64,000 bases of DNA from assembly GCF_057098645.1 (NCBI RefSeq), contig NZ_CM169472.1; one strand, given 5' to 3'. Both the position numbers and the translations under genes were made by a program. Within the stretch, counting starts at the first letter, position 1, and every line of letters begins with the position of its first letter. Positions 37,168 to 40,933 of this stretch are shown here, one piece after another. The notes below the pieces were generated by a model. It was not told the DNA's origin. It saw nothing but the letters and a program-made list of their open reading frames with translations, and did not search any database.

Positions 37168-37602
37168 AATTAATCATTCCTTAAACAAATGTTTAGCGGG
37201 CGACAAAGTTTACCCGTCAATACATCGAAACCCAACCTTTTTACGTTTTCATTTTTTAAAGTAACTGTTTAATTTTCCTGACGCGGATGACACCGCGCTT
37301 ACAGCCAAATGAATTTAGCGTTACTGGCGAGCCTGGTCTTTACATTAATTATGCAAAATTTATGGATGAGTTGTTGATATGCCATTGAAATTAAGAAAGC
37401 CGTGTAGGCAAGTTTTCCATTTGCCATCTACGCTTAATTTTGAAGGTGTATCACCGGGCACGTTGTTCTCATCGTCGATAAAATGGCATGAGAGTTGCTG
37501 TGTTTTAGCAAGAGACGTCGTTCAGTTTACCTCTTCCGGGAGCCTCTACTATTCATATGAACGGCTCTTAACCTGTGCTAAAAAACGAAAGGACGGCATA
37601 CC

Positions 37603-39537
37603 ATGAATATATTCGATCACTATCGCCAGCGATATGAAGCTGCCAAGGACGAAGAGTTCACACTGCAGGAGTTTCTTACCACTTGTCGGCAAGATCGCAG
37701 TGCTTATGCCAACGCGGCTGAGCGGCTATTGATGGCTATCGGTGAGCCTGTCATGGTCGATACAGCCCAGGAACCCAGACTTTCTCGACTCTTTTCTAAC
37801 CGGGTCATTGCACGTTATCCGGCGTTTGAAGAGTTTTACGGCATGGAAGACGCGATTGAACAGATTGTCTCTTATCTGAAACACGCGGCTCAGGGGCTGG
37901 AAGAGAAGAAACAAATCCTGTATCTGCTGGGGCCTGTGGGTGGGGGTAAATCATCGCTTGCTGAGCGACTGAAATCATTAATGCAGCTCGTACCGATTTA
38001 TGTATTGAGCGCCAACGGTGAGCGTAGCCCGGTCAACGATCATCCGTTCTGTCTTTTCAATCCGCAGGAAGATGCGCAGATTCTGGAAAAAGAGTATGGC
38101 ATTCCTCGCCGTTATCTCGGCACCATCATGTCGCCGTGGGCGGCAAAACGTCTGCATGAATTTGGTGGCGATATTACTAAGTTCCGGGTAGTGAAGGTCT
38201 GGCCGTCCATTCTGCAACAAATTGCTATCGCCAAAACAGAGCCCGGTGATGAGAACAACCAGGACATCTCCGCGCTGGTAGGGAAAGTCGATATTCGTAA
38301 ACTCGAACACTACGCGCAGAATGACCCAGACGCCTATGGCTATTCCGGCGCACTGTGCCGCGCCAACCAGGGGATCATGGAATTCGTTGAGATGTTTAAA
38401 GCACCGATTAAAGTGCTGCATCCCTTGTTAACCGCCACTCAGGAAGGTAACTACAACGGGACGGAAGGTATCTCCGCCCTGCCGTTCAACGGGATTATTC
38501 TTGCCCACTCGAACGAGTCCGAATGGGTCACTTTCCGTAATAACAAAAACAACGAAGCCTTCCTCGATCGTGTTTACATCGTGAAGGTGCCGTATTGCTT
38601 GCGCATTTCCGAAGAGATCAAAATCTACGAGAAATTGCTTAATCACAGTGAATTGACTCACGCCCCATGCGCCCCTGGCACGCTCGAAACACTGTCACGT
38701 TTTTCCATTCTTTCGCGCCTGAAAGAGCCAGAAAACTCCAGCATTTATTCAAAGATGCGGGTTTATGATGGCGAAAGTCTGAAAGACACCGATCCCAAAG
38801 CCAAGTCGTATCAGGAATATCGTGACTACGCCGGTGTCGATGAAGGGATGAACGGTCTGTCGACGCGTTTTGCGTTTAAGATCCTCTCCCGCGTGTTCAA
38901 CTTCGATCATGTAGAAGTGGCGGCAAACCCGGTCCATCTGTTCTACGTCCTGGAACAGCAGATCGAGCGCGAGCAGTTCCCACAAGAGCAGGCAGAACGC
39001 TATCTGGAGTTCCTGAAAGGTTATCTGATCCCGAAATATGCCGAGTTTATTGGCAAAGAGATCCAGACGGCCTACCTTGAATCCTATTCCGAATATGGGC
39101 AAAACATTTTCGACCGTTATGTTACCTACGCGGATTTCTGGATTCAGGATCAGGAGTATCGCGATCCGGATACCGGGCAGCTGTTTGACCGCGAGTCTCT
39201 TAACGCCGAGCTGGAGAAAATCGAGAAACCGGCGGGGATCAGTAATCCAAAAGATTTCCGCAACGAGATTGTTAACTTCGTACTGCGCGCCAGAGCCAAT
39301 AACAGCGGACGCAATCCGAACTGGACCAGCTATGAAAAACTGCGCACGGTTATCGAGAAGAAAATGTTCTCCAATACCGAGGAGCTGTTGCCGGTTATCT
39401 CGTTTAACGCCAAAACGTCAACCGACGAGCAGAAGAAACACGACGACTTTGTCGACCGTATGATGGAAAAAGGCTACACCCGTAAACAGGTGCGTTTACT
39501 GTGCGAATGGTATTTGCGTGTACGTAAATCGTCTTAA
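37603..39537 (+). CDS. yeaG: PrkA-family serine protein kinase
   Basis: 644-aa ORF with P-loop GPVGGGKSS; conserved pairing with yeaH. Confidence 0.9.
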   Translation: MNIFDHYRQRYEAAKDEEFTLQEFLTTCRQDRSAYANAAERLLMAIGEPVMVDTAQEPRLSRLFSNRVIARYPAFEEFYGMEDAIEQIVSYLKHAAQGLEEKKQILYLLGPVGGGKSSLAERLKSLMQLVPIYVLSANGERSPVNDHPFCLFNPQEDAQILEKEYGIPRRYLGTIMSPWAAKRLHEFGGDITKFRVVKVWPSILQQIAIAKTEPGDENNQDISALVGKVDIRKLEHYAQNDPDAYGYSGALCRANQGIMEFVEMFKAPIKVLHPLLTATQEGNYNGTEGISALPFNGIILAHSNESEWVTFRNNKNNEAFLDRVYIVKVPYCLRISEEIKIYEKLLNHSELTHAPCAPGTLETLSRFSILSRLKEPENSSIYSKMRVYDGESLKDTDPKAKSYQEYRDYAGVDEGMNGLSTRFAFKILSRVFNFDHVEVAANPVHLFYVLEQQIEREQFPQEQAERYLEFLKGYLIPKYAEFIGKEIQTAYLESYSEYGQNIFDRYVTYADFWIQDQEYRDPDTGQLFDRESLNAELEKIEKPAGISNPKDFRNEIVNFVLRARANNSGRNPNWTSYEKLRTVIEKKMFSNTEELLPVISFNAKTSTDEQKKHDDFVDRMMEKGYTRKQVRLLCEWYLRVRKSS

Positions 39538-39544
39538 CAACCCT

Positions 39545-39569
39545 GGCCCGGTACACATGCTACCGGGCC
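39545..39569 (+). other. Perfect 9-bp stem-loop between yeaG and yeaH
   Basis: GGCCCGGTA-CACATGC-TACCGGGCC; no T-run follows, so probably an intra-operon stability or attenuation element rather than a full terminator. Confidence 0.35.
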
Positions 39570-39649
39570 TACAACGACAGCGAACCGTGGGCCAGAGAAA
39601 TGGCAACACAGGCGTAGCATACAGTTGGCAAATGTAGTACGGGGGGCAT

Positions 39650-40933
39650 ATGACCTGGTTTATTGACCGGCGTCTGAACGGCAAAAACAAAAGCATGGTG
39701 AATCGCCAGCGTTTTTTACGCCGTTATAAAGCGCAAATTAAACAGTCGATCTCCGAGGCCATTAATAAGCGTTCGGTGACTGACGTCGACAGCGGCGAAT
39801 CCGTATCCATTCCCACGGAAGATATTAGCGAACCGATGTTTCATCAGGGGCGTGGCGGCCTGCGCCACCGCGTACATCCGGGCAATGACCATTTCGTCCA
39901 GAACGACCGAATTGAACGTCCCCAGGGTGGCGGCGGAGGTTCCGGCAGTGGTCAGGGCCAGGCCAGCCAGGATGGTGAAGGTCAGGATGAATTCGTCTTT
40001 CAGATTTCGAAAGATGAGTATCTTGATCTGCTCTTTGAAGATTTGGCCTTACCGAATCTGAAACAAAACCAACAACGCCAGCTGACCGAATATAAAACGC
40101 ATCGGGCGGGTTATACCGCTAACGGCGTTCCGGCCAATATCAGCGTTGTGCGTTCATTGCAGAACTCACTGGCGCGACGCACAGCCATGACGGCAGGCAA
40201 GCGGCGGGAACTTCATGCACTGGAAGAGAATTTGGCCATCATCAGCAACAGTGAACCTGCGCAGCTGCTGGAAGAGGAACGTCTGCGCAAAGAAATTGCA
40301 GAATTACGTGCCAAAATTGAACGCGTCCCTTTTATTGACACCTTCGATTTACGTTACAAGAACTACGAGAAGCGGCCCGATCCCTCCAGCCAGGCAGTGA
40401 TGTTTTGCCTGATGGACGTTTCCGGTTCAATGGATCAATCCACTAAAGATATGGCTAAGCGTTTTTATATTCTGCTGTATCTGTTCCTCAGCAGAACGTA
40501 TAAGAACGTGGAAGTCGTATACATCCGCCATCATACCCAGGCGAAAGAAGTCGATGAACATGAGTTTTTCTACTCGCAGGAAACTGGCGGCACCATTGTT
40601 TCCAGCGCCCTGAAACTGATGGATGAGGTAGTGAAAGAGCGTTATAACCCGGCACAGTGGAATATTTACGCTGCACAAGCATCGGACGGCGATAACTGGG
40701 CCGATGACTCTCCGCTTTGTCATGAAATCCTGGCGAAAAAATTATTACCTGTTGTTCGTTATTACAGCTATATCGAAATTACTCGTCGTGCACATCAGAC
40801 ATTGTGGCGAGAATATGAGCATCTGCAATCTACTTTCGACAACTTTGCGATGCAGCACATCCGCGACCAGGATGATATTTATCCGGTGTTCCGTGAACTG
40901 TTTCATAAACAAAATGCAACAGCTAAAGACTAA
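39650..40933 (+). CDS. yeaH: DUF444 (YeaH/YhbH family, vWA-like) protein
   Basis: 427-aa ORF with Gly-rich low-complexity stretch ([21 protein letters not shown]); downstream of yeaG. Confidence 0.85.

Follow-up and report, generated by a model that had tools for sequence, protein, structure and literature searches.

A stem-loop in the yeaG-yeaH gap of Escherichia coli, apparently the remnant of a REP element, lies at an mRNA 3' end

Why does a perfect GC-rich palindrome lie inside an operon, between two genes whose products work together? YeaG and YeaH jointly act as a metabolic brake under nitrogen starvation, and their levels matter for growth recovery. In the E. coli window analysed here (64,000 nucleotides of contig NZ_CM169472.1), mipA, on the minus strand, is followed by 435 bp (37168-37602), yeaG, 112 bp (39538-39649) and yeaH:

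36421-37167, minus strand: mipA (ORF list and RefSeq annotation)
37603-39537, plus strand: yeaG, PrkA-family protein kinase (ORF list, RefSeq, Pfam)
39650-40933, plus strand: yeaH, DUF444 protein (ORF list, RefSeq, Pfam)

A sequence-only reading of this DNA had named yeaG and yeaH, and the Pfam domains agree, with PrkA AAA and PrkA C-terminal domains in the yeaG product and DUF444 in that of yeaH. The region is 100% identical to that of E. coli O145:H28 RM12761 and was found in 5425 of 5426 complete E. coli genomes. The same reading had pointed to both gaps, taking the first for a long leader with a 75-codon open reading frame and proposing that a stem-loop in the second tunes the yeaG:yeaH expression ratio or marks an RNA processing site. 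The upstream region is already known; the yeaG-yeaH hairpin has no earlier description, and the text of the RepRanger supplement does not mention yeaG.

The 435 bp between mipA and yeaG form discrete conserved blocks in an alignment of 14 Enterobacteriaceae, and the following features were assigned within them:

37168-37602, unstranded: mipA-yeaG divergent intergenic region, regulatory DNA plus yeaG 5'UTR (annotation, 14-Enterobacteriaceae alignment)
37364-37391, unstranded: conserved 28-bp block GATGAGTTGTTGATATGCCATTGAAATT (alignment)
37379-37606, plus strand: 75-codon ORF, not a gene (Pfam, cross-genus comparison)
37427-37437, plus strand: sigmaS-type extended -10 TCTACGCTTAA, predicted start near 37441 (sequence reading)
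37483-37499, plus strand: sigma54 promoter ATGGCATGAGAGTTGCT, -24 GG / -12 GC (ChIP-seq site match)
37510-37602, plus strand: 93-nt yeaG 5'UTR from the sigma54 start (promoter spacing, McQuail 2023)
37572-37583, plus strand: SdsR sRNA pairing site CCUGUGCUAAAA (published site, pairing recomputed)

ChIP-seq site OS18, assigned to yeaG and placed 93 nt from its ATG (Bonocora 2015), has exactly the sequence TGGCATGAGAGTTGCT of 37484-37499. Published data show the motif bound in Salmonella too, and it is kept in 25 loci across Enterobacterales, so that the promoter elements, their canonical spacing and in vivo binding all come together at yeaG. As the C of the -12 GC sits at 37498, +1 was placed at 37510; a published 5'UTR fusion spanned -93 to +63 of yeaG (McQuail 2023). 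A sigma38 promoter beside the sigma54 promoter of yeaGH is stated in the literature. The 93-nt 5'UTR is nearly invariant in the Enterobacteriaceae aligned. The sigmaS extended -10 motif is said to be KCTAYRCTTAA, with which TCTACGCTTAA at 37427-37437 agrees; its CTACGCTTAA is kept in nine loci, and the start site there is predicted. NtrC enhancers typically lie about 100-150 bp upstream of the promoter. A published NtrC ChIP peak covers 37492-37572, but no match to the consensus TGCACCA-N3-TGGTGCA with up to three mismatches was found in 37168-37602, and such matches are not enriched across the window (88 vs 108 in shuffles), which suggests that the NtrC sites here are weak or atypical. The 28-bp block at 37364-37391, near-invariant and at fixed spacing to the sigma54 promoter in 13 Enterobacteriaceae loci, likewise holds no NtrC consensus match and is absent from Erwinia, Serratia and Dickeya.

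Within the 5'UTR, the SdsR site at -31 to -22 of yeaG has been validated by compensatory mutations (McQuail 2023). Recomputing this interaction gave ten contiguous pairs between SdsR nt 33-42 and the yeaG UTR, with 15 equally long chance matches in the window; the contiguous-pairing search was used in place of unconstrained duplex folding, which returned long, meaningless duplexes no better than background. Deletion of sdsR raises YeaG 1.8-fold and YeaH 2.1-fold, and the two genes still respond as one unit upon its loss. Taken together, the 435 bp are the already-described control region of yeaGH, in which a sigmaS promoter stated in the literature accompanies the NtrC-activated sigma54 promoter and an SdsR-repressed 93-nt 5'UTR. 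The length given for the "leader" was right and the DNA is regulatory, but only 93 nt (from the sigma54 start) or about 160 nt (from the predicted sigmaS start) of it would be transcribed. Similarly, the suggestion to look there for sigmaS, sigma54 and NtrC control was well placed in that all three are documented at this promoter, except that the NtrC consensus itself is missing from the 435 bp. The 75-codon ORF (37379-37606) had been judged non-coding, and this was borne out: it has no Pfam match, stops or frameshifts interrupt its frame even in E. albertii, as they do in most other genera compared, and its ATG precedes both transcription starts. A small protein was rejected on the grounds that the frame is not conserved and matches no family.

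We turn to the 112-bp gap, in which these features were assigned:

39545-39572, plus strand: REP-derived stem-loop (stem 39545-39553/39561-39569, loop 39554-39560, foot CTAC 39569-39572)
39574-39575, plus strand: window equivalents of K-12 Term-seq 3' ends (Adams 2021, Supplementary file 1)
39587-39606, plus strand: decayed second REP GTGGGCCAGAGAAATGGCAA, inverted relative to the first (aligned to GTAGGCCGGATAAGCG..GCGCATCCGGCAA of relatives)
39623-39649, plus strand: yeaH translation-initiation core AGTTGGCAAATGTAGTACGGGGGGCAT, with Shine-Dalgarno GGGGGG at 39641-39646 (conservation)

The perfect 9-bp stem-loop reported at 39545-39569, without a T-run, was confirmed in both coordinates and fold. 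It reads GGCCCGGTA / CACATGC / TACCGGGCC, with nine perfect pairs and a 7-nt loop, begins 7 nt past the TAA stop of yeaG and has a folding energy of -16.8 kcal/mol in isolation. The sequence directly 3' of the stem is TACAACGACAGCG, and an intrinsic terminator was rejected, as no U-tract follows and a terminator scan makes no call. When each stem/loop combination with loops of 3-10 nt is counted, perfect hairpins of 9 bp or more number 22 in the 64-kb window (14 distinct sites), whereas 30 dinucleotide shuffles average 1.9, and the chance expectation of such a hairpin in a given 112-bp gap is about 0.003; the stem-loop is therefore more than chance would provide. The 146-nt stretch around the gap does not fold unusually well (z = -0.82), and it is the hairpin alone that stands out. 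The minimum-energy fold also pairs CCCU (39541-39544) over a long range with the yeaH Shine-Dalgarno; this was dropped, CCCU being unconserved outside E. coli. When 36000-41500 was scanned against Rfam with a permissive E-value, just two chance-level matches came up (E 2.6 and 4.2), both far below gathering scores; one of them, RydC on the minus strand over the hairpin, was rejected (19.7 bits vs a threshold of 48).

Orthologous gaps point to the origin of the palindrome. In 16 of them (Escherichia, Citrobacter, Enterobacter, Pseudescherichia, Pluralibacter and Superficieibacter), the arms GCCCGG/CCGGGC form a hairpin of -15 to -22 kcal/mol at 7-11 nt past the stop codon. The copies of C. youngae and Enterobacter, which read GCCCGGTGGCGC..GCGCTTACCGGGC(C/T)T(A/G)C, are the reverse complement of the REP consensus GTAGGCCcGgTAAGCG..GCGCCaCCgGGC tabulated for C. 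koseri and K. pneumoniae (Nunvar 2010, Table 1), where the consensus sequences start with GTAGG. The E. coli hairpin is the positional orthologue of this Citrobacter/Klebsiella-class REP (GCCCGGTGGCGC..GCGCTTACCGGGCCTAC, the CCCGG class). While the C. youngae and Enterobacter copies match the class consensus almost fully, the window copy agrees in both arms and the foot (about 21/27 nt by eye) and differs in its apical part. In four relatives (L003, L005, L006 and L011) a second, inverted REP, GTAGGCCGGATAAGCG..CATCCGGC, follows downstream and completes a BIME; the window counterpart aligns to it with an 11-14-column gap and is degenerate, carrying a deletion and only a 4-bp stem, which makes it a BIME relic. 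In E. coli, then, the top of the first REP and the whole of the second have decayed, leaving the basal stem and CTAC.

The CCCGG-class consensus occurs at a median of four places per E. coli genome, and its 15 best-scoring matches lie outside annotated features. The hairpin variant of the window is present once in the window and once per E. coli genome, has no REP annotation in K-12, and shows the REP traits of a 25-nt stem-loop palindrome, a CTAC foot and an extragenic position, here within the yeaGH operon. Elsewhere the gap looks different: it is short in Vibrio, Aeromonas, Rheinheimera and Dickeya (16-40 nt, the ancestral state), in other lineages this position is taken by different palindromes or by ERIC elements, and in many species it contains no hairpin. 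The yeaH initiation core is kept across Enterobacterales, including species in which the whole gap measures 34-36 nt. Judged by these alignments, which show REP descent, what survives in the stem-loop is the base of a REP that the sequence-only reading had not recognised, and a decayed REP/BIME is the simplest account of a perfect GC-rich palindrome at this site.

RNA 3' ends coincide with this element. In K-12 Term-seq data, whose coordinates were checked against the K-12 locus, a reproducible 3' end maps to 1868879 in stationary phase (LB at OD 2.0, 1211 reads), 5 nt past the stem, and to 1868880 in minimal medium (M63, 762 reads), 6 nt past it; none is listed at the stem in LB at OD 0.4 (Adams 2021). 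Read counts at this site are modest. It is the sole curated 3' end of the yeaGH operon, with none past yeaH, where a pattern scan alone predicts the operon end:

40938-40970, plus strand: terminator-like hairpin plus short T-run past yeaH

In this data set, annotated REPs likewise have ends 3-12 nt past their stems, at similar read counts. The proposal that the hairpin marks an RNA end was thus supported by these K-12 ends, and the uniform yeaG-yeaH coverage, with no end at the hairpin, that would have spoken against it is not what Term-seq shows. U-tract-less stem-loops, a quarter of them REPs, are known to halt PNPase and RNase II and in this way to fix steady-state 3' ends (Dar and Sorek 2018).

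The best explanation, and in our judgement probably the right one, is that the REP relic serves as a barrier to 3'-to-5' exonucleases and leaves a yeaG-only mRNA. An ancestor of Escherichia, Citrobacter and Enterobacter carried a two-REP BIME in the yeaG-yeaH gap, of which E. coli retains the 9-bp GC-rich stem and CTAC foot, 7 nt past the yeaG stop. Within the yeaGH mRNA this forms a hairpin of about -17 kcal/mol that, having no U-tract, is not an intrinsic terminator and would instead block PNPase and RNase II. Transcripts cleaved or terminated farther downstream would be trimmed back to the hairpin and accumulate as yeaG-only mRNA ending 5-6 nt past the stem. The yeaG segment would thereby be more stable than the yeaH segment, and the YeaG:YeaH ratio may shift with it. 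Weighing against this reading are the modest read counts, the joint response of YeaG and YeaH to SdsR loss, a stem covariation no higher than in shuffles, the many species that lack a hairpin here, and the single-copy state of the variant in E. coli, where K-12 has no REP annotation for it.

The ends could also arise in other ways. Partial termination in the gap, Rho-dependent or BIME-associated, would lower yeaH relative to yeaG transcription; a 3' end is indeed present, and BIME-associated attenuation has been reported (Espeli 2001, as cited in Dar and Sorek 2018). We nevertheless find such an attenuator improbable. The U-tract is absent, and the 80 nt past the stem are G-rich, not C-rich (17 C vs 26 G), with no C-rich, G-poor stretch of about 70 nt or more as expected of a rut site. 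The strong, conserved Shine-Dalgarno comes next and leaves little untranslated RNA for Rho loading, and the site is off the list of Rho regions, though the operon is scarcely expressed in LB at OD 0.5, the condition used for that list (Adams 2021). Still harder to credit is that the hairpin, suggested from the sequence as a possible processing site, is a target of RNase III or RNase E, at which the dicistronic mRNA would be split. A 3' end does lie close by. RNase III requires roughly two helical turns, and a 9-bp stem is well below that need; moreover, the ends fall outside the stem, 5-6 nt downstream, as expected of exonuclease stalling and as at annotated REPs (3-12 nt).

Two further readings concern what the hairpin does rather than how the end forms. 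It might do nothing: on a decaying REP, the Term-seq end would be an incidental decay intermediate with no effect on YeaG or YeaH levels. This seems to us possible but doubtful. The visible decay of the second REP and of the top of the first in E. coli fits it, as do the species that have gaps of 16-40 nt without any hairpin, the modest read counts and the joint response of YeaG and YeaH to SdsR loss. So does a test for covariation in the stem, which found one covarying pair and was not significant (62/500 shuffles score as high); since the same pair also varies among REP families, selection on RNA structure is not demonstrated. Against neutrality, every sequence examined from Escherichia, Citrobacter and Enterobacter retains an intact basal stem while the apex has been rewritten three separate times (in E. 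coli, strain SCPM-O-B-8794 and Citrobacter FP75), both arm changes of E. albertii turn G-C into G-U and so retain RNA pairing, and the operon has its only curated 3' end at the hairpin and none past yeaH. Alternatively, the stem may act as a brake on yeaG translation, if the terminating ribosome must melt it, with stalling, tmRNA recruitment and lower YeaG output; we consider this rather unlikely. REPs less than 16 nt from a stop codon are reported to cause ribosome stalling and tmRNA recruitment (Liang, Rudd and Deutscher 2015), and the stop-to-stem distance is 7-11 nt in 16/16 orthologues, but the stem falls short of full REP length and yeaG falls outside the annotated-REP set behind that study, where it could not have been included because the gap is not annotated as REP. 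Such a brake is compatible with an exonuclease barrier.

The exonuclease barrier, if it uncouples yeaG from yeaH, would constitute an extra control point in the operon. A bolder proposal, which we would not favour, is that Escherichia and its relatives keep the basal stem of the dead REP under selection as a functional element between the two genes, which, 7 nt past the yeaG stop, would shield yeaG-only mRNA and slow terminating ribosomes so that YeaG and YeaH depart from 1:1 in starvation; if true, this would add a starvation-specific, post-transcriptional layer above NtrC, sigmaS and SdsR. The case suggests that unannotated, degenerate REPs can still define mRNA 3' ends, so the influence of REPs on operons may be under-counted. 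As an advance this is incremental, given that this type of element and its mechanism are already well established.

Among known systems, the published pairing of NtrC/sigma54 promoters with a sigmaS promoter is met here without difference, the window holding the exact sigma54 motif, the 93-nt UTR and the SdsR site. Intercistronic REPs reportedly act as stabilisers, as between malE and malF. The yeaG-yeaH hairpin resembles these REP/BIME elements in its GC-rich palindromic sequence, its CTAC foot and its place within an operon just past a stop codon, and further in its missing U-tract, an RNA 3' end a few nt past the stem and documented REP-class descent. Unlike typical REPs, it is degenerate (apical third off consensus, partner REP dead), single-copy as a variant and unannotated in K-12, and its stabilising role is putative. 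It shares with the stem-loops of Dar and Sorek (2018) its stability, the lack of U residues after it and a precise 3' end directly downstream, but is operon-internal rather than at an operon end and is followed by G-rich, not C-rich, sequence. Relative to the stop-proximal REPs reported to lower translation (Liang 2015), of which nrdAB is an example, the yeaG stem at 7 nt is within the <16 nt limit, but is shorter and not an annotated REP. Identical in layout is an E. coli BIME at locus L088, which lies between the hpa isomerase gene and hpaH and is one of the places where the class consensus occurs in this species. It is likewise intercistronic, beginning 10 nt past a stop codon, and its two REP classes, their order and their orientation are those of the yeaG-yeaH element; the hpa copy is intact, at 30/31 nt of the class consensus, where the yeaG-yeaH copy has decayed.

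The hairpin at 39545-39569 in the yeaG-yeaH gap appears to be a degenerate, unannotated copy of a repetitive extragenic palindrome (REP), an element class that is very well known. The window is from E. coli; its segment 37100-41100 matches O145:H28 strain RM12761 at 100% identity, and 5425 of the 5426 complete E. coli genomes contain it. Annotation and ORF list agree on the genes of this segment:

36421-37167, minus strand: mipA
37603-39537, plus strand: yeaG
39650-40933, plus strand: yeaH
from 41080, plus strand: cdgI

The sequence-only reading gave the gaps before and after yeaG as 435 bp and 112 bp, and both figures match. 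Kinase domains of the PrkA AAA and PrkA C-terminal types were identified in the yeaG product; yeaH encodes a DUF444 protein. In a published growth-transition microarray of O157:H7 Sakai, yeaG changed significantly at stationary-phase entry and mipA (yeaF) went down; yeaH was among the early-stationary changes only, a weak hint that the timing of yeaG and yeaH differs.

The 435 bp upstream of yeaG (37168-37602), earlier read as a long leader, are the yeaGH control region known from the literature: a compound promoter followed by a short (93-nt) UTR. At 37483-37499, ATGGCATGAGAGTTGCT is an exact letter match to the sigma54 ChIP-seq site OS18, which Bonocora et al. (2015) attribute to yeaG, 93 nt away; taking 37498 as the C of the -12 GC puts +1 at 37510 and makes the 5'UTR 93 nt long, and McQuail et al. 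(2023) took it as exactly -93 to +63. In Salmonella, sigma54 binds the same motif. According to the McQuail group, a sigma54-dependent and a sigma38-dependent promoter lie side by side ahead of yeaGH, an NtrC ChIP-seq peak (Brown et al., 2014) converts to ~37492-37572, and the sRNA SdsR pairs with the 5'UTR at -31 to -22, reducing translation, as compensatory mutations showed (McQuail et al., 2023). In our recomputation, SdsR nt 33-42 paired with 37574-37583 over 10 contiguous base pairs. The conserved TCTACGCTTAA at 37427-37437 fits the extended sigmaS -10 motif, making it a putative -10 element with a predicted start near 37441. The motif types suggested earlier for this region were found for sigma54 and, as a candidate, for sigmaS; the NtrC consensus TGCACYN5GGTGCA, at up to 3 mismatches, had zero matches within the mipA-yeaG intergenic region, where the published peak lies. 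A near-consensus NtrC-type palindrome (1 mismatch), TGCATTACGGTGGTGCA, occurs at 36349-36365 (and 36401-36417), ~1.15 kb upstream of the sigma54 promoter and adjoining the bidirectional terminator hairpin 36365-36389 between yeaE and mipA; it may be a chance match, because NtrC-consensus matches are no commoner in the window than in shuffles.

In an alignment of 14 Enterobacteriaceae the yeaG 5'UTR is almost invariant, and several upstream blocks are also conserved, including 28 bp at 37364-37391 (GATGAGTTGTTGATATGCCATTGAAATT; direct repeat ATTGA-N6-ATTGA). This block, which matches neither NtrC nor a clear IHF consensus, is near-invariant and at fixed spacing to the sigma54 promoter in 13 Enterobacteriaceae loci, and is missing from Erwinia, Serratia and Dickeya, although these retain the promoter. 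The promoter itself is kept in 25 loci across Enterobacterales and was not seen in relatives from Vibrio, Shewanella or Alteromonas. Under the strict pattern, Enterobacter sp. Bisph1 and a MAG locus (L015, pattern-scanned only) have no sigma54 promoter match upstream of yeaG; the Bisph1 locus, for which there is an alignment, is without the conserved upstream blocks too and shares only the last ~20 nt before the yeaG ATG. The 75-codon ORF in this region, already said to have no coding signature, is rejected as a gene: it starts upstream of both yeaG transcription starts (the sigmaS one predicted), had no match in a family search, and does not stay open in E. albertii or in most other genera compared, where stop codons or frameshifts break it.

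The perfect 9-bp stem-loop without a T-run was confirmed in the yeaG-yeaH gap. It reads GGCCCGGTA-CACATGC-TACCGGGCC, with nine perfect pairs and a folding energy of -16.8 kcal/mol, begins 7 nt after the yeaG stop codon and is directly followed by TACAACGACAGCG; K-12 has the same stem, with one loop base different. Perfect hairpins of this size number 22 in the window (14 distinct sites, each stem/loop combination being counted separately), whereas dinucleotide shuffles have 1.9 on average, and the hairpin is therefore no chance palindrome. Folding of the 146-nt stretch containing the whole gap is unremarkable (z = -0.82).

From 80 loci encoding YeaG relatives we extracted each yeaG-yeaH gap. 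It spans 16-40 nt in Rheinheimera, Aeromonas, Photobacterium and Dickeya, with little beyond a strong Shine-Dalgarno, and this short form is the ancestral one. Enterobacterales have a ~30-nt core (AAGTTGGCAA..G..GT..GGGGG) just before yeaH, and additional sequence has been inserted between it and the yeaG stop codon. The ~27 nt preceding yeaH (39623-39649; AGTTGGCAAATGTAGTACGGGGGGCAT) are conserved across Enterobacterales well past the Shine-Dalgarno, and their GTTGGCAA part might be a binding site for an sRNA or protein. The inserts are lineage-specific: ERIC or ERIC-like elements, recognised by the ERIC1R/ERIC2 primer sequences, lie in Citrobacter sp. FP75 (~4520-4600 of locus L004, gap 202 nt) and Serratia grimesii (~4480-4530 of locus L019, gap 179 nt), and Yersinia and Vibrio have unrelated palindromes. 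All these inserts make the gap a recurrent landing site for small repeats.

Escherichia, Citrobacter, Enterobacter, Pseudescherichia, Pluralibacter and Superficieibacter have as their insert a hairpin with GCCCGG/CCGGGC arms, placed 7-11 nt downstream of the stop codon. Its sequence in C. youngae and Enterobacter is GCCCGGTGGCGC..GCGCTTACCGGGC(C/T)T(A/G)C, which, read as its reverse complement, is the REP consensus of C. koseri and K. pneumoniae (Nunvar et al., 2010, Table 1). Four relatives carry, ~15 nt past the hairpin, an inverted REP of the other class (GTAGGCCGGATAAGCG..CATCCGGC), the pair forming a BIME; this second REP aligns to 39587-39606 in the window, where it is degenerate, with a deletion. 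The consensus of the first class (CCCGG) matches E. coli genomes at a median of 4 places each, and the places in the 15 best-scoring rows fall outside annotated features. One of these places is an intact BIME of the same two classes in E. coli WCHEC020031, between the hpa isomerase gene and hpaH (401-480 of locus L088): GCCCGGTGGCGCTGCGCTTACCGGGCCTACAA, 18 nt, then GTAGGCCGGATAAGGCGCAGCCGCATCCGGCAA, starting 10 nt after a stop codon. In view of the REP or BIME at the same spot in relatives, the consensus and the E. coli copies, the window's hairpin, a single-copy variant without REP annotation in K-12, appears to be what a decayed REP has left behind, its basal stem and CTAC foot. At 10980-11009 lies a canonical E. 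coli REP (GCCTGATGGCGCTACGCTTATCAGGCCTAC), the sole GTAGGCCKGAT match in the window.

K-12 Term-seq places reproducible 3' ends, classed "primary, yeaG", just past this stem (Adams et al., 2021, Supplementary file 1):

K-12 1868879, plus strand: yeaG 3' end, LB, OD 2.0, mean reads 1211
K-12 1868880, plus strand: yeaG 3' end, M63 glucose, mean reads 762
LB, OD 0.4: no yeaG 3' end listed

These positions are the A and C of CCGGGCCUACAAC, 5 and 6 nt past the stem, and correspond to 39574/39575 in the window. At annotated REPs in the same data, ends fall 3-12 nt beyond the stems, with read counts comparable to those of yeaG. The earlier interpretation of the hairpin is partly supported, by the RNA 3' end located there. 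The same study gives no curated 3' end after yeaH, including at the terminator-like hairpin 40938-40970 (plus strand), and has a Rho termination region antisense to the yeaH 3' end (K-12 1870212, minus strand; window ~40907, minus strand). The yeaE 3' ends are very strong (K-12 1864735 and 1864740, >120,000 reads; window ~35430-35435, minus strand), and the sequence listed around them holds a palindrome, GTGTGCCGGATGCATTGCACCCGGCACAC, without an obvious U-tract.

On the simplest reading, the REP relic would act as an exonuclease barrier, PNPase and RNase II trimming transcripts back to the stem and leaving a stable yeaG-only mRNA. U-less stem-loops, a quarter of them REPs, set steady-state 3' ends, which trimming by these two enzymes explains (Dar and Sorek, 2018). 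Transcription termination inside the gap is less likely, because a U-tract is absent and the 80 nt past the stem, rich in G (26, with 17 C), lead into a strong ribosome-binding site. Ribosome stalling has been reported at REPs <16 nt from a stop codon; since the stem begins 7 nt after that of yeaG, such stalling could also apply here, and would lower rather than raise YeaG output.

A serious rival is that the relic is neutral and the 3' end an incidental decay intermediate. SdsR loss raises YeaG 1.8-fold and YeaH 2.1-fold, that is, similarly (McQuail et al., 2023). Stem covariation does not exceed the shuffle control (one covarying pair; 62 of 500 shuffles score equally high), and as this sole pair varies within REP families too, it does not demonstrate selection on RNA structure. 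All 16 orthologues retain an intact basal stem, while the apical part has been rewritten in three lineages, and both E. albertii arm substitutions change G-C to G-U; these are weak hints of constraint.

The layout of the gap is like that of the hpa BIME, the hpa copy being intact whereas the window copy has decayed. For the exonuclease barrier, malE-malF is the classic case, and the same barrier and stable upstream mRNA are what we propose for yeaG.
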